Shown piece after piece: positions 4,195-54,040 of a DNA stretch of 64,000 nucleotides. Source of the DNA: an uncultured Bacteroidales bacterium (GTDB lineage Bacteria; Bacteroidota; Bacteroidia; Bacteroidales; WCHB1-69); contig CAJOKR010000039.1 of the NCBI GenBank assembly GCA_905235135.1, forward strand, positions 3,972 to 67,971, read 5' to 3'. The first letter of the stretch is position 1. Each line of letters starts with the position of its first letter. Below the pieces are notes generated by a model. The model was not told where the DNA came from and did not search any database. It was given only the letters and a program-made list of their open reading frames with translations. The translations under genes were made by a program, and so were the position numbers.

Positions 4195-4758
4195 ATGAAA
4201 AAATTATTATTATTCATCGGATTAACTGTTTTCACGTTCAGCGCATTTGCTGAAAAGGTCCCTGCGGTTGTTGTAACCAAGAGCAACGGCGGCTGGACAG
4301 CCATCCTCAACTTGTACAACTATGTCTCCTACACGCCAGCGGACCTCAGTCCTACCGGCGTCGGCCAGTTGGAGTGCTCGGGTGGCGGCTTCACCGCATG
4401 TAGGGTGCCGAATTGCACACACCTGACGGTCAATAACGGCACTGCAGTCTCAACCGTCTCAGAATCCAGCAAGGTGAATGCTCTGCAAGCGGCCATCAAC
4501 AACGTCATCATCCAGTATGAGGCGGCCCAGGAGCAGAACATGGATTCCGCCGTAAAGCCGAACGCAGGCAAAGGAGCCTCTATTCCAAGCGTTTACACAA
4601 AGACCATTGCCTTCGCCAACAATTCCGGAACTTCGAAAGCGAACAAAACGGAGACCTATGTGGTGCGTGGGGTGGTGACGGCCAGCGATGCGAACTCCTC
4701 CACAATGAAAATCTACATCGAAAAGACGAACCTTCTCCCCTCTGTAAGCAGTAATTAA
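4195..4758 (+). CDS. Secreted hypothetical protein
   Basis: MKKLLLFIG..SAFA signal peptide; AT-rich leader. Confidence 0.75.
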   Translation: MKKLLLFIGLTVFTFSAFAEKVPAVVVTKSNGGWTAILNLYNYVSYTPADLSPTGVGQLECSGGGFTACRVPNCTHLTVNNGTAVSTVSESSKVNALQAAINNVIIQYEAAQEQNMDSAVKPNAGKGASIPSVYTKTIAFANNSGTSKANKTETYVVRGVVTASDANSSTMKIYIEKTNLLPSVSSN

Positions 4759-44458: not shown

Positions 44459-47400
44459 ATGTTAGAACTTACCATTACCAAGTCGTTGAACAAGGCATAC
44501 CGGCAAATCCCTGTTGACCGCGCCGCCTTCGATAATTTCAAAAAACAGTTGCATTTCCTTTATGAACAGATTTCCTCCGTGAACAGAGAAGAAAAGCTAA
44601 AAGGAGATTTGATGGATTTCCTGAAAATGTCGTTCTATGGGCAAACTTACAAAGTGTCACCCAACGGCGATATCGACTGCGCTATCCATCTTGGTAGTAG
44701 CATAGATGACCCAGTCGGTGTTATCTTCGAGGTTAAGACGCCGACTAACAAATCTGAAATGATTACAAAGGAAGATCTCAACCGCAAAGCCTTGCAAGAA
44801 TTGCTTCTTTATTACCTCCGGGAGCGTCATGCAAAGAAAAACTTCCAGCTCAAACAGCTTGTGGTCACCAATGTTAATGAGTTTTTTGTTTTCGACGCAC
44901 AGGAGTTCGAACGCTTATTCTACTCCAACAAGAAACTCATCAAACGTTTTGAAGAATATAGTGCGGGGGAATTGACCTCTGAAAAGACTGACTTTTTCTA
45001 CAAAGAGATAGCCGCTGATTTTATTGCCAAAGTGCTGGATCAGTTGACATTCACTTGGTTCGATATCCAGAAATACAAAATTCCCCTTGACACAGGCAAT
45101 GATAAGCGCCTCATAGAGCTGTTCAAGTTTTTCAGTCCAGAACATCTTCTGAAAAAACGCTTCCAAAACGACAGTAACTCTCTCAACACCAAGTTCTATA
45201 GCGAACTTTTGTACATCATAGGACTGGAAGAGGTGGAAGAAAAAGACAGCCATAAGCGCATTATTACACGGCGGAAACAGAACGAACGCTATCCAGCTTC
45301 CCTTCTTGAAAATGCTATCAACATATTAGACGCAGAAGACTGTATTGACAATGTTGAGGAGCGCTATTATTACGGAAAGACTCGTGAAGAGCAACTCTTC
45401 AACATAGCTTTATCCCTAACTATCAATTGGGTGAACCGCGTATTGTTTCTGAAGCTTCTCGAGGCACAACTTGTAAAATACCACAAAGGGGACCAAAGTT
45501 ACGCGTTTATGCGAACCACCTTGATTCCTGATTATGATGAGCTTAACAAACTCTTCTTCCAAGTCCTGGCCAAACGTGTTGCAGATCGTTCCGACACTAT
45601 CAATGCTAAATATGGCAAGGTTCCGTATTTGAATAGCTCACTGTTTGAGATTAGCCACTTGGAACGTTACGCAATTCGTATCAGCAACCTTGAAAACAGT
45701 GAACTTCCCCTTTATACTGGCACCGTCCTCAAAGATGGACAAAAGCCTCGCTATAAGCAGCTCCCAACGCTTCGCTATTTGCTTGAATTTCTTGATGCAT
45801 ATGATTTTGCAAGCGAAGGGACAGAAGAAGTTCAAGAGCAAGCTAAGACGCTTATCAACGCCTCAGTTCTCGGCTTAATCTTCGAGAAAATCAACGGTCA
45901 CAAGGATGGTTCCGTCTTTACGCCGGGTGCTGTCACCATGTACATGAGCCGCGAAGCTATCCGACAAACAATAGTTAGACGTTTCAATGAAGAAATGAAC
46001 TGGAACTGCAAAGACTACGATGACCTTAAGAACAAAGATATAGAAGACCTTGCTCTCGCCAATGCCATTGTAGATTCCCTGCGTATCTGTGACCCCGCTG
46101 TCGGTTCCGGTCACTTTTTAGTATCTGTCCTTAACGAAATCATCCGTACCAAATACGATCTCGGTATTTTGGTTGACGGATCTGGAAGACGCATCAAAAA
46201 ACAAGACTATAGCATTGATATAGAGAATGATGAACTGCTCGTTTCTGATGAGGAGGGTAATCCTTTCTCTTATACCCCTGGCAATCCTGAAAGCCAACGT
46301 GTTCAAGAGACGCTTTTCAACGAAAAGCGCAAAATCATAGAAGACTGTCTTTTCGGAGTGGACTTGAACCCGAATGCTGTAAACATTTGTCGTCTCCGCC
46401 TTTGGATTGAACTGCTGAAGAACGCCTATTATACAAAAGAAAGCAATTTCACTGAATTAGAGACACTTCCCAACATTGACATCAACATCAAGGAGGGTAA
46501 TTCTCTGTTACACCGTTTTGACTTGAATCAGGACATTTCTGACATACTCCGCAAAAATGGTATTTCTATAAGTGAATATTATAGGGCGGTCAATGATTAC
46601 AAAAACGCCCACAGCAAAGAGGAGAAACGGAAACTTGTGGATTACTTGAAGCAAATTAAAGGGAACCTTCGCACTCAAATTGGGCTGAACGATCCCAAAC
46701 TGAAGAGCAAGCGTCAATTGCAACGCGAACTGGACAATCTGACAGCCCCACAACTTTTTGAAATCAGCAAGAAAGAACAGGCTGCGCGTGACAAAAAGGC
46801 AAAGGAATTGCAGGTCAAGATAGACAAAATTCAAAAAGAGATTGATGAGATCCGTGACAACAAGGTTTTTGTAGATGCTTTCGAGTGGCGCATTGAGTTC
46901 CCTGAAGTGTTGGATGAAAACGGCAAGTTCATCGGATTTGATTGTGTTATTGGCAATCCGCCGTACATACAGCTTCAAAAAATGGGTGCGGATGCCGATG
47001 CACTCCAAAAAATGAATTACCAAACCTACGAGCGCACTGGCGATATTTATTGTCTGTTCTACGAAATGGGCATGGCATTGTTGAAGCCTGGAGCTTTGTT
47101 GTCGTTTATTACTTCAAACAAGTGGATGAGAGCGGGATATGGTGAATCACTGCGTGAATTTCTTGCCAATCAATGCGACCCGATCTTGTTGATTGATTTT
47201 GCCAACAACAAAATATTTGATTCGGCAACTGTTCTTGTAAACATACTATCTCTGATAAAAAGAAACAATTTGAAGAAAACACTTGCTTGCTCGGTTGAAG
47301 ATGGTTTTGACATCGGGAAACTGAGCGATTATGTGGAGACACATACACAATACTCCATCTTTGGTAAAGATGCTTGGACCATACTAAGCGACATTGAACT

Positions 47401-48184
47401 AAGTATCAAAACTAAAGTTGAATCAGTTGGTATTCCTCTTAAAGACTGGGATGTAGAAATATACCGTGGTGTTTTGACTGGTTATAACGATGCTTTTATC
47501 ATCAGCTCAGAGAAAAGAAACGAAATCCTTGATAATTGCGCTGATGAAGAAGAGCGTGAAAGAACGTCCGCAATCATTCGACCAATTCTTCGCGGACGGG
47601 ATGTAGCACGGTACAAGTATAATTGGGCTGATTTGTGGCTGATCAACACCCATAACGGTATTAAAGGCAAATTGGAGCGCATTCATATAGAGGACTACCC
47701 TGCTATCAAGCAACATCTTGATTATTATTGGGATAAGATAGAGTCCAGAGCTGACAAAGGCGGCTCTCCTTATAACCTTCGAAATTGCGCCTATATGGAC
47801 GAATTTTCGAAGCCAAAAATCGTATGGGGAAATTTGAACACATCTGGGAGTTATGCACTAGCGCCTGAAAACATGTTCATAAACGCCCCCTCTTGCATGA
47901 TTGTGCCTGGTAACAGATATCTATTGGCTGCACTTAATTCCAAAGTGGTAGATTATTACATTCGAACACTTGGAGTCGTTCGTAACGGCGGATTTTTTGA
48001 ATACAAACCCATGTTTGTTGAAAAAATACCTATTCCAAAGATAACGACTGAACAAGAATTGGCCTTTGACGAATTACTATCTTCATCTCTAACTGATAGC
48101 GACAGAGACGCCAAGACTGACAAATTGATGTGTGAACTATACGGTTTATCAGAAGAAGAAATCAGTTTTCTCCAAAATCAATAA
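44459..48184 (+). CDS. Type IIG restriction-modification enzyme (Eco57I-like, REase + N6-adenine MTase + TRD)
   Basis: DIDCAI..IFEVK (PD-D/ExK), DPAVGSGHFL (motif I), GNPPY (motif IV), TaqI-like C-terminal PILRGRD..PKIVW..LNS. Confidence 0.93.
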   Translation: MLELTITKSLNKAYRQIPVDRAAFDNFKKQLHFLYEQISSVNREEKLKGDLMDFLKMSFYGQTYKVSPNGDIDCAIHLGSSIDDPVGVIFEVKTPTNKSEMITKEDLNRKALQELLLYYLRERHAKKNFQLKQLVVTNVNEFFVFDAQEFERLFYSNKKLIKRFEEYSAGELTSEKTDFFYKEIAADFIAKVLDQLTFTWFDIQKYKIPLDTGNDKRLIELFKFFSPEHLLKKRFQNDSNSLNTKFYSELLYIIGLEEVEEKDSHKRIITRRKQNERYPASLLENAINILDAEDCIDNVEERYYYGKTREEQLFNIALSLTINWVNRVLFLKLLEAQLVKYHKGDQSYAFMRTTLIPDYDELNKLFFQVLAKRVADRSDTINAKYGKVPYLNSSLFEISHLERYAIRISNLENSELPLYTGTVLKDGQKPRYKQLPTLRYLLEFLDAYDFASEGTEEVQEQAKTLINASVLGLIFEKINGHKDGSVFTPGAVTMYMSREAIRQTIVRRFNEEMNWNCKDYDDLKNKDIEDLALANAIVDSLRICDPAVGSGHFLVSVLNEIIRTKYDLGILVDGSGRRIKKQDYSIDIENDELLVSDEEGNPFSYTPGNPESQRVQETLFNEKRKIIEDCLFGVDLNPNAVNICRLRLWIELLKNAYYTKESNFTELETLPNIDINIKEGNSLLHRFDLNQDISDILRKNGISISEYYRAVNDYKNAHSKEEKRKLVDYLKQIKGNLRTQIGLNDPKLKSKRQLQRELDNLTAPQLFEISKKEQAARDKKAKELQVKIDKIQKEIDEIRDNKVFVDAFEWRIEFPEVLDENGKFIGFDCVIGNPPYIQLQKMGADADALQKMNYQTYERTGDIYCLFYEMGMALLKPGALLSFITSNKWMRAGYGESLREFLANQCDPILLIDFANNKIFDSATVLVNILSLIKRNNLKKTLACSVEDGFDIGKLSDYVETHTQYSIFGKDAWTILSDIELSIKTKVESVGIPLKDWDVEIYRGVLTGYNDAFIISSEKRNEILDNCADEEERERTSAIIRPILRGRDVARYKYNWADLWLINTHNGIKGKLERIHIEDYPAIKQHLDYYWDKIESRADKGGSPYNLRNCAYMDEFSKPKIVWGNLNTSGSYALAPENMFINAPSCMIVPGNRYLLAALNSKVVDYYIRTLGVVRNGGFFEYKPMFVEKIPIPKITTEQELAFDELLSSSLTDSDRDAKTDKLMCELYGLSEEEISFLQNQ

Positions 48185-49083
48185 AACCAATATATAACTG
48201 TTCTTCTTTAGTTAAACCATAAAGGTCAAAAATCTGCTTATCTATTATTATAGCCTTTTCTTGAGTATAATCGTTTTGTATATCCTCGACAAGAGTTGCA
48301 AATCGTTGTTCTTGCTCTACAGAAACGCTAATCACAGGAATGTCATCCATGAAGATTTTGCTCAATTCTCTTGTTTTTCCTTGTAATTCAGGGAATTTGT
48401 TTGCAAAACAGAACTTGAAAAGAGAAGAATTTAAAAATGCTGTTAAGAATCCGAGCTTCTCTCCTGTCACAATGAAACACTTTTGGTTTGTCAAAAACCC
48501 CTTGGTGTCAAACACAAAAGGAAGGAACTTGGTCATATTCGGATAAATAATTTTTGGCTTCGAAAATTCGTCCCAATAACTGATACTATCCTGTGTTTCA
48601 AACCACTTATTATTCGTTTTTTTTCTTGCTTTTACCTTTTCTCCATCAATAAAATACTCTTTGCCTGTTTGCTCCAATCGCTCCATTCCAAAACCAAGAA
48701 GAAATGATTTAAGTGATTGATAATCATCTATATTATACTGTCTTGACGGGAATGTCGCAATGATATACTTCTCATCCCAATTGTAACTATAACGCTTGAT
48801 GTCCCGTCCCCTTAATATTGGTCGAATGATTGCGGACGTTCTTTCACGCTCTTCATCACTCTGGCAATTGGAAAGTATTTGCTCCCTTTTTGCCGAATCA
48901 ATAATAAAAGCATCATTGAACCCTGTCTTTATTCCATAGTTGATGGAAACATCCCAATCTTTCAATGGTGTGCCAACGGATTCAATCTTTGCTTTGATGG
49001 ATCGCTCAATGTCGGTCAAAATAGACCAAGTTTCGAAGGAATCGAACTCAGAATTAACAGCATGTGTCTCCACATAATCGCTC
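47323..49083. mobile_element. Invertible segment bounded by perfect 22-bp inverted repeats (47323-47344 and 49062-49083)
   Basis: gagcgattatgtggagacacat and its exact reverse complement atgtgtctccacataatcgctc; inversion keeps the reading frame. Confidence 0.88.
48162..49073 (-). CDS. Silent alternative C-terminal specificity domain (TRD) of the type IIG enzyme
   Basis: Shares W.IL.DIE.SIK.K.ESVG.PLKDWDV..TG.NDAFII..ERERTSAIIRPILRGRD with the expressed TRD, then diverges; begins inside the inverted repeat. Confidence 0.9.
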   Translation of the reverse strand: METHAVNSEFDSFETWSILTDIERSIKAKIESVGTPLKDWDVSINYGIKTGFNDAFIIDSAKREQILSNCQSDEERERTSAIIRPILRGRDIKRYSYNWDEKYIIATFPSRQYNIDDYQSLKSFLLGFGMERLEQTGKEYFIDGEKVKARKKTNNKWFETQDSISYWDEFSKPKIIYPNMTKFLPFVFDTKGFLTNQKCFIVTGEKLGFLTAFLNSSLFKFCFANKFPELQGKTRELSKIFMDDIPVISVSVEQEQRFATLVEDIQNDYTQEKAIIIDKQIFDLYGLTKEEQLYIGFIDFGEN

Positions 49084-49692
49084 CTATTCTTCCTTCAAAA
49101 AAGTGTTTACAAATCGACACAAAGTGTTGCGGTCCACTTTGCAGATGACAGCTATTTTTCGTCGTGATATCCCAGCCTTCAACAATTCCGATATTAGGTT
49201 TTTCTTGGGGTAGAGCTTGTACTTTTTTTCATCCGTCTTCTTGCCAACAGGCCGTCCCAAAACAACACCGTCTGCCTTTTTTCTCGCCAACGCCTCTTTC
49301 GTCCGCTGGCTGATGAGGTTTCTTTCAATCTCTGCCGACAATCCAAAAGCAAATGCCAGCACCTTGCTCTGGATGTCGTCACCAAGACGGTAATTGTCCT
49401 TGATGGTCCACACCCGACATTCTTTCTTCATACAAAGGCTCAGGATTTCCATAATCATGAAAAGGCTTCTGCCCAATCGGGACAGCTCGGCACAGATAAT
49501 CAAATCGTCTTTCTGAACTTTCTTCAACAGCCGCCCCAGCTCCCGTTTGTCATAATTCTTGGTTCCGCTGATGGTTTCCTCAATCCAGCCGTCAATGTGC
49601 AGGTTCTCTTTCAAGCAGAAGTTGTTAATCTCAAAGCGTTGGTTCTCCACCGTCTGCTTATCGGAGGAGACGCGAATGTAACCGTAAATCAT
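49084..49692 (-). CDS. mpi: Mpi-family serine DNA invertase
   Basis: MIYGYIRVSSDKQTVENQRFEI, ELSRLGRS, SKVLAFAFGLSAEIERNLISQRTKEAL..LGRP, C-terminal HTH. Confidence 0.92.
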   Translation of the reverse strand: MIYGYIRVSSDKQTVENQRFEINNFCLKENLHIDGWIEETISGTKNYDKRELGRLLKKVQKDDLIICAELSRLGRSLFMIMEILSLCMKKECRVWTIKDNYRLGDDIQSKVLAFAFGLSAEIERNLISQRTKEALARKKADGVVLGRPVGKKTDEKKYKLYPKKNLISELLKAGISRRKIAVICKVDRNTLCRFVNTFLKEE

Positions 49693-49777
49693 ATCTTTGC
49701 TTTTTTACAAAGATACGGTTATTAAATAACGTTGTATAAAACGGCAGCGATGTTTTACCGTTTCAACCATCCAAGTA

Positions 49778-50116
49778 TCAAATACCATACAACATTGCGC
49801 CCAGAATAGGGTTGTCTTCTTTTATTTTCTCTCTGCATGCCCTGTCTCTTGCATTAACAAAGGCTGACCTAATATCCCACTCATTCTCATCATCCATCAT
49901 ATACCTGCGTTCTTCCGTATCGAGCACATCGCATTGCTTGCCATTGTCGTCCCAGAGCTCGTCTATGTCGAAAAAGTCGCTCATCTCCGAGAGCTCATAC
50001 CAGGCCACGCATTTCCCATCATACCGCATGGCATCCTTTATCTTGTTGTACATGTACTCCTCAAGCGCTATCCGCTGCGCTATGTCCAACGGTCCGGTTA
50101 TGATCTGTTTTTCCAT
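49778..50116 (-). CDS. Small acidic hypothetical protein (112 aa)
   Basis: ATG about 35 nt downstream of TACCTTTG in the CRISPR repeat; 27 D/E vs 15 K/R by hand count. Confidence 0.65.
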   Translation of the reverse strand: MEKQIITGPLDIAQRIALEEYMYNKIKDAMRYDGKCVAWYELSEMSDFFDIDELWDDNGKQCDVLDTEERRYMMDDENEWDIRSAFVNARDRACREKIKEDNPILGAMLYGI

Positions 50117-50140
50117 ATCTCTACGATTACGATTTTGGCA

Positions 50141-50262
50141 TTTCAGACTGCAAAGGTACAAAACTTTTGAAAGCTATTCACAACAGCCGCAGCCTGGCAT
50201 GGAAGATCGTGAAGACTGTTTCAGACTGCAAAGGTACAAAACTTTTGAAAGCTATTCACAAC
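50141..50262 (-). CRISPR. Orphan mini-CRISPR: two type II-C-like repeats and one 30-nt spacer
   Basis: 44-nt identical direct repeats at 50141-50184 and 50219-50262; full unit GTTGTGAATAGCTTTCAAAAGTTTTGTACCTTTGCAGTCTGAAACAGT (50215-50262); spacer 50185-50214; no cas gene seen in the window. Confidence 0.82.
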
Positions 50263-50707
50263 TAGCGTTGAATAGTGGTTCCCAGTTGCAGTCCTCAGGC
50301 GTGTCCATTATGCCACCTCTGTATTTATAAACAAATTTTGCCCAAAATGATCTTACATAAATACCGTCTTCTTTCAGAACCGCATGAGCACCGTCTGGTA
50401 TTTTATAGACAATGCCGTTGGCTTTTATTCCGTCAATGTGTTTTACAACATCTCCGGCTTGAACAACATAAAGGGTATCGCTGTTTTCATCTTTGGCCAA
50501 AATCGGTGACATAGTTTTGTTTTTCACCACTGATCTTGACACAAACATTGAATATACAAGCGAGGCTCCAGTAACGGCCATTGGTATCGGGAACCATCCT
50601 TCCATTGACTTGCTTATTATGAAGCAAACAAACAGCAATACTGTTACTACCGTCGCCACATCTGCTAATAAATACCCGTCTATTGTTCCAAACTTCTTCG
50701 TCTCCAT
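50252..50707 (-). CDS. Hypothetical membrane protein whose last codons and stop lie in the CRISPR repeat
   Basis: Two N-terminal hydrophobic helices; ends ..gct agt tgt gaa tag. Confidence 0.65.
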   Translation of the reverse strand: METKKFGTIDGYLLADVATVVTVLLFVCFIISKSMEGWFPIPMAVTGASLVYSMFVSRSVVKNKTMSPILAKDENSDTLYVVQAGDVVKHIDGIKANGIVYKIPDGAHAVLKEDGIYVRSFWAKFVYKYRGGIMDTPEDCNWEPLFNASCE

Positions 50708-51060
50708 ATTTTAGATTTTTCTACATTGCATTAACAATCAGATGCGTTAATTATTGTCATCATTGACAAGACCTCAGCTCTTCCACTAATTTTGAATACA
50801 AATGAACAAATTTGTTGTTAATGCACGTTTTTCGTATCCGAATTTTTTGTTTCTTTGCAGCGTCCTTTGGTGGTTGGTACAACACCCTTCTTGGGGCGGG
50901 AAAAGATTCAGAGTAACCACTTTCTAAACTTTCAGAATTAGCACCACAGCCTCTTTACGTGTTGCTGCTACCGGCTGTTCTGGAAGTTATTCTTTTATCT
51001 ACTTTCACTGCATACACAATATTGGACTCTCTGCTACGTTACCCGTGAAAAAACAAACCT

Positions 51061-51825
51061 ATGAATCAAGATGTACAACAAGAAATGCCGGGCTTTTTCC
51101 GCCAAGTGACCAACTGGAAGGAGTTGCGGTTCTATCAGAAAACGGAAGTCCTTTACCAACTCACTTACGTGTTTTGTGAGCGGTTCCTGCCTAAATACGG
51201 AGACCGCACCGTGGACCAGATGCGCCAGGCAGCACGCTCGGGGAAACAGAACATTGTGGAAGGGGCAGAGGATGGAAAGATGTCCAACGAGATGGAGCTG
51301 AGACTGATGAATGTTGCCAGAGGGAGCATTGGCGAACTACGTCAGGATTTCGGTGATTATCTCAAATCCCGCCATTTGCCTATTTGGACCCCCGCTGACA
51401 AGCGTTTCCAACCTATGCAGGACTTCACCAAAACGCACAACACCCTCAGCGACTACGAGCCTTATTTCCAAAAGTGGACTGCCGAGGAGATGGCCAACGT
51501 CGGCCTCACCTTGTGCTACCAAGTGGACGTGATGATGAACCGCTACATGAAGACAATGGAACAAACTTTCATCAAGGAAGGAGGCGTGAAAGAGCGGATG
51601 CACAAAGCCCGCAGCAACTACCGCCAGCAGCAAGACGACCGTCTGGCGGAACTGGAACGCAGCGTTCCGCTGCTTCAGCAGCAGCTTGCTGCTGCCCAGA
51701 AAGAGGCATCCCAATGGAAAGCCGCCTATGAAAACCTAAAGCAACGGGCTGTCAAGGCTTATCGTTTGCAGCAGGAAGAAATAGAAATGCTGAAGAAAAG
51801 AATTGGCAAAGAACAGGAACTATAG
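51061..51825 (+). CDS. Four-helix-bundle protein (TIGR04258-like) with C-terminal coiled coil
   Basis: FYQK..LYQLT..FC.RFL..DRTVDQM.QAARSGKQNIVEG..NVARGS..EL..D..DYL..F..EGG..E.M..AR. Confidence 0.85.
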   Translation: MNQDVQQEMPGFFRQVTNWKELRFYQKTEVLYQLTYVFCERFLPKYGDRTVDQMRQAARSGKQNIVEGAEDGKMSNEMELRLMNVARGSIGELRQDFGDYLKSRHLPIWTPADKRFQPMQDFTKTHNTLSDYEPYFQKWTAEEMANVGLTLCYQVDVMMNRYMKTMEQTFIKEGGVKERMHKARSNYRQQQDDRLAELERSVPLLQQQLAAAQKEASQWKAAYENLKQRAVKAYRLQQEEIEMLKKRIGKEQEL

Positions 51826-52375: not shown

Positions 52376-52978
52376 ATGACTAACATTATGGATATGGAAG
52401 ACAAAATGATCACCCTGAGAAACCAGCAGGTGATTCTGGATTCTGATGTGGCTGAGCTCTACGATGTAGAGACTCGTGACATCAACAAGGCGGTCAAAAA
52501 CAATCCGAGGAAATTTCCGAAAGGCTACATTATTGAATTGGATGCCTCCGAGAAGAATGAACTGGTGGAAAATTTCCACCGGTTCGAAAAACAAAAGCAC
52601 TCAACTGTAAACCCTAAAGCTTTTACGGAAAAAGGGTTGTACATGCTGGCCACCATCCTGAAAAGCCCCAAAGCTGTGGAAACCACCATCGCCATTGTGG
52701 AAGCTTACGCGAAATTGCGTGAACTCGCTCAGGTGATTGCCGAAGTGTCGCAACACAAGGACGACAAATCGGCGCAGCAATCGCTGATGCAACGCGGTGG
52801 ACAGCTGGCGGCGGAGCTACTGGCAGACAATCTTCCGATTCAAAGCAGCGAGACCTCCGTTGAGCTGAATCTCGCCATGTTCAAACTCAAGCACACTGTG
52901 AAGCGGGAAAACGACAATGAGGAACGGATCGCGCGTCTTGAAGCAGAACTGGCAGAACTCAAAAAAGAGAGGCAGTAA
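52376..52978 (+). CDS. ORF6N (KilA-N-like) domain protein
   Basis: RNQQVILDSDVAELY.VETRDINKAVKNN..KFP..PKAFTEKGLYMLATILKSP. Confidence 0.88.
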   Translation: MTNIMDMEDKMITLRNQQVILDSDVAELYDVETRDINKAVKNNPRKFPKGYIIELDASEKNELVENFHRFEKQKHSTVNPKAFTEKGLYMLATILKSPKAVETTIAIVEAYAKLRELAQVIAEVSQHKDDKSAQQSLMQRGGQLAAELLADNLPIQSSETSVELNLAMFKLKHTVKRENDNEERIARLEAELAELKKERQ

Positions 52979-52989
52979 AGAGACTCCAT

Positions 52990-53046
52990 AAAATCATTTG
53001 CAGAAGCCGTTGACCGCAGGAGATTCCGCCGCTCACTCCGTTCGCC
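52990..53046 (+). repeat. Non-coding module A, copy 1 (copy 2 at 54272-54328, diverged copy at 55562-55690)
   Basis: aaaatcatttgcagaagccgttgaccgcaggagRttccgccgctcactccgttcgcc; one mismatch between copies 1 and 2. Confidence 0.9.
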
Positions 53047-53071
53047 GTTGGTTTACAGGTTTTGCTACGAT

Positions 53072-54040
53072 TCACAACTGCAACACCTGATTCCTCTCCA
53101 AACTGCCGACTATGTTTTGGTAGAGCATCACATCCTCCACCCTGCTGATGGAAGAGACCCGCTTACCAACATCCTTAGAAGACCCTCCGCAATGAAAAAT
53201 CATCTCACTCGGAGTGGCGTGGTCAATGAAGATGTAGCGGTCGTGATAAATGCCGCCCGAAGATTTCAGTTCAACGTCAACCTGCGGGTATTCGCTCTGG
53301 AAATCAGCGAACTCGGTCTGGTGCAGGCCGTGGTTCACGTTGTCGCTGAAAATGGTGACCTTCACCTCGGAGGACACTGATTTTAGCAGAACCAATGTCT
53401 TCAAACTGATGTAATTATCGATGATATGGATTGACTTCTTGGCGTAGGAATAGATTTCCGAATAGGCGATGTCGGCCTCAACGGTCTGACCGTTATAGAA
53501 CAGGTAGTCTTTCTTGATAGTAGGGTCTGTGAAATCCTTAATGACAACGGAAAGCTCATCGCGGGTCACCATCTGCTGCTTCATTTGGCGAATGTCTTCT
53601 GTGTTGTTTTGGGTTTGAAGCGCAAGAACTTGCAATTCAGTACTTGGTAAAACGTTCTGTATTTGAATGGCAAAGTCTTTTAATTTCTTGAAGAGCCTGA
53701 TCAATGTTTTGCTCTGCTTCACAGCAAGATTGCCTTTTAGCACCATCATCAAGGAATATATTCCCAGCTCGGTAAAAGCGTATGGGCATTTACGTTTGCC
53801 ACCCCAACTTGATGTCGAAAATTTCGACATCAAGTTTTTAAATTCTAACTCAGTGAGTTGGAATCGGAAATCGTCATCAAAACGCTCAATGTTGTTTTTG
53901 ACTTGCTCATTGAATCGCGTTGTCGTATATCCGTAAATGGCCGCCAAATCAAAGTCCAGCATCACTTGCACGCCTCTGATGACATATATCTTCGACATCA
54001 AATATTCTTCGTCAAGAGGTATCATTCCTTTTTCTTCCAT
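53072..54040 (-). CDS. ORF6N domain protein with C-terminal PLD-like (HDR) domain
   Basis: IRGVQVMLDFDLA.IYGY.T..FNEQVKNN..RF..DFRFQLT, PYAFTE; IIDNY..YHDRYIFID..CGGSSKD.G. Confidence 0.88.
   Translation of the reverse strand: MEEKGMIPLDEEYLMSKIYVIRGVQVMLDFDLAAIYGYTTTRFNEQVKNNIERFDDDFRFQLTELEFKNLMSKFSTSSWGGKRKCPYAFTELGIYSLMMVLKGNLAVKQSKTLIRLFKKLKDFAIQIQNVLPSTELQVLALQTQNNTEDIRQMKQQMVTRDELSVVIKDFTDPTIKKDYLFYNGQTVEADIAYSEIYSYAKKSIHIIDNYISLKTLVLLKSVSSEVKVTIFSDNVNHGLHQTEFADFQSEYPQVDVELKSSGGIYHDRYIFIDHATPSEMIFHCGGSSKDVGKRVSSISRVEDVMLYQNIVGSLERNQVLQL

Follow-up and report, generated by a model that had tools for sequence, protein, structure and literature searches.

The stretch analysed here, 64,000 nt from an uncultured rumen Bacteroidales bacterium (contig CAJOKR010000039.1, positions 3,972 to 67,971; hereafter the window), carries a minimal CRISPR array set between two small genes on the minus strand. 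The genome to which the window belongs (G000) is represented by an assembly of 118 contigs that is 88% complete. In the order of transcription, the locus comprises a 151-aa open reading frame (ORF; 50252..50707), whose N-terminal half is hydrophobic as judged by eye; a complete 48-nt type II-C repeat (repeat 1, 50215..50262, read from 50262 to 50215); a single 30-nt spacer (50185..50214, read from 50214 to 50185); a second repeat (repeat 2, 50137..50184, read from 50184 to 50137); a short 5′ untranslated region (UTR; 50117..50136); and an ORF for a 112-aa acidic protein of an uncharacterised family (49778..50116). Two 44-nt copies with 100% identity, at 50141-50184 and 50219-50262, lie 78 nt apart from start to start and are the only matches in the window at up to three mismatches, against a mean of 0.00 matches over 100 dinucleotide shuffles. 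On the minus strand both copies read GTTGTGAATAGC..., or in longer form GTTGTGAATAGCTTTCAAAAG...; the true unit of 48 nt, which runs from GTTGTG to a 3′ end of GAAACAGT, was set by comparison with the full array of a congener (G002). Repeat 2 equals repeat 1 over positions 1-44 and differs in the last four, TGCC in place of CAGT. Two repeats (48 nt and 44/48 nt) with one 30-nt spacer make the minimum possible array, and the spacer length falls in the range of 29-30 nt found for 80 spacers in five congener arrays. The 151-aa ORF ends with a TAG at positions 9-11 of repeat 1 and is not truncated by the repeat, its homologue P0021 ending at the same place. Tandem Repeats Finder reported nothing at the two-copy locus, and an Rfam scan of 49000-51500 matched no family, giving only a chance small nucleolar RNA match (E = 0.5). 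The original prediction, a model's reading of the letters of the window alone, had described a repeat, 30-nt spacer and repeat with a 78-bp period, a 151-aa ORF that stops inside the first repeat, a second repeat degenerate in its last 4 nt, and a motif within that repeat about 35 nt before the ATG of a 112-aa ORF with a very acidic core; all of these details were borne out, the periodicity by the exact copies and the shuffle control and the acidity by an isoelectric point of 4.34.

The repeat was found in 8 of 55 genomes of the genus, with 31 copies in G002, 27 in G004, 19 in G070, 9 in G033, and a single copy at a contig end in G075; two congeners that lack cas9, G003 (96% complete) and G074 (92% complete), hold three copies and one copy, respectively. 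In G002, 30 repeats with two mismatches adjoin genes for Cas9 (TIGR01865, 530.8 bits), a type II (NMENI) Cas1, and Cas2, the array being convergent with the cas genes, and cas9 also lies on the same contig as the repeats in G004, G070, G033 and G075. According to the ORF list, and not to a family search, neither csn2 nor cas4 stands beside the congener array. A gene resembling that of a trans-activating CRISPR RNA (tracrRNA) precedes cas9 in G002: it has a promoter-like box and an anti-repeat (L014, 2464 to 2443) that pairs with the 5′ part of the repeat, followed by a hairpin and a T-run terminator. The window's repeat is a true type II-C repeat, and the G002 layout is that of a type II-C system. 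In G000 itself, a whole-assembly scan gave no further repeat copy, no Cas9 match above the cut-off (best, 18.1 bits), no Cas1, and no anti-repeat-like match longer than 13-14 nt. The absence of cas genes and tracrRNA that had been noted for the 64 kb (together with that of a leader) thus extends to the whole 88%-complete assembly, and the description of the locus as an orphan type II-C mini-array is supported, the repeat adjoining cas9, cas1 and cas2 in congeners and not in G000. The check proposed in the original prediction, to find the same repeat next to cas9 elsewhere in this genome, gave neither another copy nor a cas9 in G000; it is in congeners with 9-31 copies that the repeat stands beside cas9. 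Since G003 and G074 also carry one to three repeats without cas9, remnants of this orphan kind are common in the genus. The G074 copy (L042, G074:C80, 3996-4030) is a solo repeat cut after position 35 that runs into a gene on the opposite strand; its surroundings, judged by eye, hold Rhs-like toxin cassettes.

Each repeat of the window contains the box TACCTTTG, in repeat 1 at 50236 to 50229, where it is a candidate promoter for CRISPR RNA (crRNA), and in repeat 2 at 50151..50158 (read from 50158 to 50151), where its last G precedes the first base of the start codon (ATG, 50116) by 35 nt. Such repeat-internal promoters have reportedly been described in Neisseria meningitidis and Campylobacter jejuni arrays (Zhang et al. 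2013). TAnnTTTG is named as the Bacteroidota -7 element in PMC10309648, and for type II-C arrays, those of Flavobacterium included, transcription is described as starting at repeat-internal promoters and running toward the leader end (PMC8092290, PMC10309648). In the window, a reading that passes repeat 1, the spacer and repeat 2 in turn reaches the acidic ORF next. Within the repeat, positions 14-44 resemble upstream regions of the host, where many sites of the type TTTTGTAyCTTTGCag..GAAA match with 6-8 mismatches; the sites recovered by a scan at up to eight mismatches consist of an A/T-rich stretch, then TTGTAyCTTTGCag, then nnGAAA. The 3′ two-thirds of the repeat fit this host promoter consensus, and G000 holds 1328 TAnnTTTGC sites and 44 TTTTGTAnCTTTGC sites. 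The 20-nt UTR contains no other promoter-like box, and a transcription start is predicted near 50142-50146. The proposal that the repeat-internal TAnnTTTG serves as promoter of the acidic ORF is very probably correct, given the match to the host consensus and the conservation of the element among homologous loci.

Homologous loci were drawn from species-representative genomes, IMG/VR, metagenomes and the genomes of the genus, and homologues at 50% identity or more were assigned to clade A. Besides the window, clade A has 11 distinct upstream regions (L016, L017, an L017 paralogue, L018, L019, L025, L027, L028, L029, L031 and L059; L026, L030, L058, L060, L065 and L066 were left out as duplicates). 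The repeat can be aligned in each of the 11 as far as its position 44-47, which lies 19-23 nt before the ATG, so that a decayed repeat occupies the position of the window's repeat 2 and the same junction between repeat 3′ end and UTR occurs throughout the clade. Whether homologues of the 112-aa ORF are consistently preceded by a repeat had been posed as a check in the original prediction, and the answer was positive in 11/11. The decay of these repeats is strongly uneven. The -7 segment (positions 27-35) matches at 9/9 in 10 of the 11 regions (5/9 in L029) and positions 14-26 at 6-13 of 13, while positions 1-13, the part that pairs with tracrRNA, match at only 1-8 of 13. Where flanks are unrelated, homology between loci reaches at most -68 from the ATG, which is the 5′ end of a 48-nt repeat followed by a 20-nt UTR. 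The simplest reading would be that the gene was fused once, in an ancestor, to the 3′ end of a full repeat and that the cassette then spread with its promoter part kept. The common junction, the intact -7 box and the decayed 5′ third therefore point to a takeover of the repeat promoter, which would now drive the gene; uneven decay of this kind is the prediction of selection on promoter function and runs contrary to the needs of a decoy or guide RNA.

The locus is accordingly read, with moderate confidence, as a type II-C mini-array devoid of cas genes, in which the outward promoter of repeat 2 has been taken over by the acidic gene, and in which repeat, UTR and gene form a cassette that has spread among related rumen bacteria. 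In this model, each repeat would carry a complete promoter firing toward the leader end, as in other type II-C arrays. From repeat 1 would come a single crRNA; with neither Cas9 nor tracrRNA found in G000, it is probably inert. The promoter of repeat 2 would point outward, into the adjacent gene. The repeat, the UTR of about 20 nt and the gene would together form a small cassette moving between the defence islands of related rumen bacteria; its other copies appear to keep only the promoter part of the repeat, and the window copy would be the least decayed, still attached to its array. Of the overall interpretation offered in the original prediction, the orphan mini-array and the repeat promoter stand, and the mobile anti-CRISPR module does not. 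Orphan type II-C arrays and promoters embedded in repeats are known already; what would be new is a protein gene that has taken over the promoter of a CRISPR repeat. CRISPR repeats are usually regarded as RNA handles and integration sites, and here a repeat apparently has a second life as a portable promoter. If so, the promoter role would have been kept by selection after the loss of immunity, some of the TAnnTTTG promoters scattered through Bacteroidales defence islands may be fossil CRISPR repeats, and the leader-end read-out of type II-C arrays would offer neighbouring genes a route to expression. The acidic family, for its part, is a candidate for a function related to conflict.

The spacer differs between strains. 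A 1932-nt contig from an independent run (X10) has the same order of 151-aa ORF, repeat, one spacer, repeat and acidic ORF; compared with the window, its spacer is replaced (11 listed positions and three indels differ within 50185-50213), its repeat 1 differs at four positions, and its repeat 2 has no listed difference. A second case is P0020, a homologue 82% identical to the 151-aa ORF, whose reading frame continues through a variant repeat, then a spacer of other sequence, then another repeat. Contigs from the RNA-library runs X1 and X3 lie over parts of both the 151-aa ORF and the acidic ORF, with X1 also covering the region upstream of the former, and an X8 contig (261 nt, from an RNA library) spans 49632-49892, across the junction between the acidic ORF and the downstream invertase gene; in these contigs, uncovered stretches carry no information. 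An X1 contig shows a one-repeat form in which 78 nt are skipped, which may be a graph artefact of threading the repeat loop. The spacer gave only chance-level matches among INPHARED phages (best E = 0.6) and no exact match in IMG/VR to its 30-mer or 3′ 20-mer, plasmid and metagenome collections lying outside the search. In G000 it matches itself alone at up to three mismatches; near the locus it has no partial match of at least 10 nt, and it has none to the regions upstream of cas9 or to the collected loci. The target that had been expected in phage databases or in the host was thus not found in INPHARED, IMG/VR or G000. Two partial matches were judged to be due to chance, one of 23/30 with unmatched ends at C48:23408-23437, the best that the spacer has in G000 apart from itself, within a gene that by eye resembles hexapeptide-repeat transferases, and one of 17/30 in a viral contig (L023). 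As a separate observation on spacers of the genus, spacer 18 of the G070 array matches G000 at 30/30 outside the window (C13:1643-1672). The site lies inside a 1088-aa ORF that is followed by large co-oriented ORFs with the look, by eye, of a phage tail module, so a probable prophage of the cas-less G000 would be a target of a congener's Cas9 system.

The acidic protein has 27 D+E against 15 K+R in 112 aa, and the ATG at 50116 is the conserved start of its family (MEKQ...). A confident AF2 model, with a predicted local distance difference test score (pLDDT) of 90.5, has an alpha-beta3-alpha topology. The exact protein is recorded on 25 contigs, and the family numbers 18 clusters at 90% identity; a profile search of 1.84 billion representatives returned 43 family representatives at E <= 0.001, about 43 clusters at 50% identity. 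Of ten longer homologues from this wide search that were scanned against Pfam, eight have no family; one is a TPR/NACHT protein and one shows weak, scattered hits, and both of these look like spurious matches. Pfam, PHROGs and PADLOC gave no family for the acidic ORF, and the ESM Atlas gave no usable match. A profile search of the PDB had a best E of 0.14, and Foldseek against PDB and BFVD returned nothing at E <= 0.001, its top rows being alpha-beta3-alpha folds like those of the double-stranded RNA-binding domain and SRP14 at E ~0.2. The best match of a wide VIA-align search (Z 6.0) was to unrelated proteins and lies within the tool's stated noise band. Within the genus, the gene family occurs in 7 of the 55 congeners. 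An IMG/VR viral contig carries distant homologues next to RadC-like and DUF932 genes, and on this ground the acidic ORF is taken to be a mobile-element gene that may act in phage-host or defence conflict. As to the form such action would take, interference with the element on the host's side and an anti-defence role other than against Cas9 are each given a low probability, and a role against Cas9 a somewhat lower one.

Several points weigh against the takeover of the repeat promoter as set out above. The likeness between repeat and promoter is partly generic, since host promoters share the same consensus. One clade A locus, L029, is without the -7 box and its ORF is nevertheless intact. Three clade A loci come from G070 and two from G010, and the 11 loci are for this reason not independent events. 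The RNA-library runs are available as contigs, in which neither starts nor strand can be read and whose template may have been DNA; since such contigs lie over the 151-aa ORF as well and join it to the acidic ORF, upstream read-through could supply the transcript of the latter. Spacers that differ between strains would fit an array to which Cas1-Cas2 still has access somewhere. Binned assemblies often miss CRISPR-cas loci, and with an assembly that is binned and only 88% complete the orphan status is not proven. Finally, no neighbour of known function, family or fold match hints at the protein's role.

Some of these points lend themselves to other explanations. The array could be a secondary one that is still served, with a cas operon and tracrRNA in the unassembled 12% or an unbinned contig and the acidic gene merely standing at the place of a leader. 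The spacer that changes between samples at the same locus (X10 and the P0020 contig), the incompleteness of the assembly and the presence of Cas9 in 14 of the 55 congeners are in line with this. Differential loss from a longer ancestral array would also yield differing spacers, the last 4 nt of the leader-proximal repeat have diverged, and the flank that follows this repeat is unlike the conserved leader-side flank of the G002, G070 and G075 arrays; moreover, G003 and G074 likewise have few repeat copies and no cas9 at 96% and 92% completeness, and on balance a still-served array seems unlikely. The locus could equally be debris of a lost CRISPR-cas locus without function, juxtaposed to the gene by chance, the junction being shared by descent from one accidental, hitch-hiking fusion. 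Orphan and truncated repeats do occur elsewhere in the genus, as with the solo repeat of G074, a common junction shows a single origin and not selection, and L029 has lost its -7 box. Such debris would not be expected to decay as unevenly as the clade A repeats do, with the -7 segment at 9/9 in 10/11 and positions 1-13 at 1-8/13, nor does the UTR offer another promoter-like box; in addition, other kilobase-sized inserts beside the repeat carry genes co-oriented with the repeat promoter (the acidic ORFs of G003 and a YoeB pair in G002 and G070, described below). Chance debris is therefore also regarded as improbable. The original prediction had allowed that relatives might show the array to be only the tail of a deleted CRISPR-cas locus; this is partly true, and it does not exclude the promoter reading. 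A collapse of a longer array to two repeats, or a chimeric join at the repeat, is very improbable: short-read assemblers can mis-thread 48-nt repeats, and the one-repeat form of X1 is what a k=31 graph can produce from a loop of repeat, spacer and repeat, but the independent X10 contig has the same architecture over 1932 nt, the junction of repeat and UTR recurs in 11 other loci from other assemblies, and the exact protein occurs on those 25 contigs.

The remaining explanation is the mobile anti-CRISPR module of the original prediction, in which the mini-array or solitary repeat would be an RNA decoy or guide using host Cas9 and tracrRNA in trans and the acidic protein an anti-CRISPR (Acr) protein or DNA mimic. 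The protein is small and without a known family, distant homologues lie beside the RadC-like and DUF932 genes of the viral contig, tandem paralogues occur, and the 30/30 match of a congener spacer in G000 shows that Cas9 pressure on the elements of this lineage is real. RNAs that mimic repeats beside acr genes also have precedents, as described in PMC10651486 and bioRxiv 10.64898/2026.06.01.729453. This module is nevertheless improbable. No cas9, cas1 or anti-repeat was found in G000 for it to borrow; only one of the seven gene-bearing congeners (G070) has cas9, against 14/55 overall; and neither the repeat (by an exact-match scan with a degenerate 35-nt pattern) nor the clade A genes were found in IMG/VR. 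At the other clade A loci it is the tracrRNA-pairing part that has decayed and the promoter part that persists, the reverse of the requirements of a decoy or guide RNA, and the spacer is not conserved and matches no cas9 upstream region, collected locus or phage collection. The Acr idea itself gained nothing, with cas9 in one of seven gene-bearing congeners and no significant sequence or fold match to a solved protein (PDB, none below E = 0.14; Foldseek, none at E <= 0.001), Acr proteins being too diverse for such results to exclude it. A regulatory crRNA of the CreTA type is disfavoured by the variation of the spacer between strains and the lack of a partial target nearby.

Comparison with described systems sets the takeover of the repeat promoter apart from each of them in some respect. 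The type II-C arrays of Flavobacterium columnare and F. psychrophilum, described as having a promoter in each repeat (PMC8092290, PMC10309648), are alike in the GTTGT(G) start of a long Bacteroidota-type repeat and in having a promoter motif in the 3′ part of the repeat, directed at the leader end, and congeners of G000 likewise have cas9-cas1-cas2 without csn2 or cas4 (by ORF list) and an array convergent on cas2. The window differs in having two repeats only and neither cas genes nor tracrRNA in the genome; the promoter of its last repeat reads into a protein gene and not into a leader and terminator, and the unit recurs without a functional repeat. The orphan CRISPR2 of Enterococcus faecalis, as described in PMC5491264, likewise has no adjacent cas genes, and its repeats match the Cas system of related strains; the window array is far smaller, with one spacer, and its novelty would lie in the reuse of the repeat as a gene promoter and not in the array. 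Racr (PMC10651486) and viral Cas9 inhibitors resembling single-guide RNA or small CRISPR-associated RNA (sgRNA/scaRNA; bioRxiv 10.64898/2026.06.01.729453) also present a near-solitary repeat outside a cas locus, beside a small gene with homologues in a viral contig. As those reports describe them, they reside on phages or plasmids of hosts with a cognate Cas system and keep the part that binds Cas or tracrRNA, whereas the window's host lacks Cas9, its repeat was not found in IMG/VR, and the tracrRNA-pairing part decays across homologous loci. CreTA and crRNA-like regulatory mini-arrays (Shmakov et al., bioRxiv 10.1101/2023.03.03.530964; bioRxiv 10.1101/2024.01.05.574328) share the plan of two repeats and one spacer beside a small gene; in these descriptions they lie inside cas loci and have a conserved pseudo-spacer that partly matches a nearby promoter, whereas the window has a spacer that varies between strains, no nearby partial match and no cas locus. 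A further parallel is the donation of promoters by other repeated elements. Insertion sequences can carry outward-facing promoters, and the Pc promoter of integrons drives captured cassettes. There, too, a repeated element gives a ready-made promoter to what lies downstream and the promoter-gene unit then spreads; here the donor would be a CRISPR repeat, and no integrase or transposase is associated with the cassette.

Distant homologues of the acidic protein, at 35-42% identity (clade B), have a different upstream region that is unrelated to the repeat, with G003 as the exception. One clade B member lies in a 59.5-kb IMG/VR contig (L023), after the DUF932 gene, the RadC-like JAB gene and two ORFs without a family, and G029 has three tandem clade B copies. 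A 573-aa ORF that follows the acidic ORF in L023 was considered as a portal gene and dropped, Pfam and PHROGs giving no family. In G003 (L015, G003:C85, 3890-6169), three full repeats are spaced by 1072 and 1160 nt, with no cas9, and the intervening inserts of 1024 and 1112 nt are pieces of an L023-type element placed where 30-nt spacers would be expected. Insert 2 is 95.9% identical over 1109 nt to L023 5847-6955, and insert 1 is a diverged allele of it with the same ends. Both abut the repeats to within ~2 nt with no long homology at the borders, the 15 nt preceding the first repeat are a copy of the inserts' last 15 nt, and the acidic ORFs in the inserts are co-oriented with the repeat promoters. 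Recombination between spacer and protospacer as the source of these inserts found no support, 80 congener spacers matching no acidic-ORF locus collected. A full solo repeat also stands ~1.09 kb upstream of the cas-linked array in G002 (L014, G002:C47, 10677-11820), with the same arrangement in G070 (L018, 9233-10347); within the 1.09 kb lie a degenerate repeat-like box, an ORF resembling an antitoxin gene and a gene for a Txe/YoeB toxin, and all of them point the same way as the repeat promoter. Kilobase-sized mobile-element pieces placed exactly between intact repeats, at cas-less or old array ends, were seen in three places in the genus, their genes pointing as the repeat promoter does. A bolder idea, to which little probability is assigned, is that type II-C arrays act as sites of gene capture and expression: pieces of mobile elements of kilobase size would be inserted exactly between repeats, by Cas1-Cas2 working on long DNA or by repeat-guided recombination, the upstream repeat promoter would express the captured gene, and useful captures would spread as cassettes after the loss of cas, with the window locus a capture still joined to its array. 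The acidic gene and the YoeB toxin-antitoxin pair would then be examples of captures that were kept. The kilobase-sized inserts would be relevant to the question of gene capture by arrays and to the strictness, in vivo, of the Cas1-Cas2 spacer-length ruler. An open-access keyword search of the literature gave no account of a protein gene under a CRISPR-repeat promoter, nor of kilobase-sized inserts placed exactly between type II-C repeats. Elsewhere, in L017 (G010), three decayed copies of repeat promoter and UTR lie at 4614, 5947 and 7714, 1.3 and 1.8 kb apart, two of which head paralogous acidic ORFs and one a truncated start; this arrangement resembles a worn version of the kilobase-spaced repeats in G003.

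The mini-array lies in a defence island, a low-GC stretch of ~12 kb (40-45% GC, against 51-56% in the flanks), in which no phage structural genes or integrase are in view. Between the acidic ORF and the invertase gene, a minus-strand hairpin followed by UUUUAUAC (UUUU) at 49737..49765 may be a weak intrinsic terminator; its z-score is -3.64 and 0 of 200 shuffles fold as well, and a terminator scan does not list it on the minus strand. The same interval contains a separate TATCTTTG box of the TAnnTTTG type. The acidic ORF and the invertase gene may be co-transcribed, as the original prediction suggested, the X8 contig spanning their junction, but this hairpin and this box stand between them. 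The resolvase-type invertase (49084..49692, minus strand) belongs to the neighbouring phase-variable restriction-modification (RM) system and is context, not part of the array; in L027, too, an acidic ORF is followed by an invertase gene and then by RM genes. Elsewhere, clade A genes neighbour RM systems, ORF6N/RhuM genes, an ATPase gene (AAA-type by eye) and a YoeB-like toxin gene, and the low-GC stretch of the window also holds RhuM fragments and a 23S-IVP-like four-helix protein. The RM system of the window (44459-49692) is of type IIG, with a 1241-aa enzyme that contains DUF7149, DUF7814, Eco57I methylase and TaqI_C domains and an inverted spare TaqI_C specificity gene at 48162-49073. On the other side of the array, at 52376-54040, two divergent ORF6N genes match the PADLOC candidate PDC-S05 (E = 4.6e-78 and 1.5e-99).

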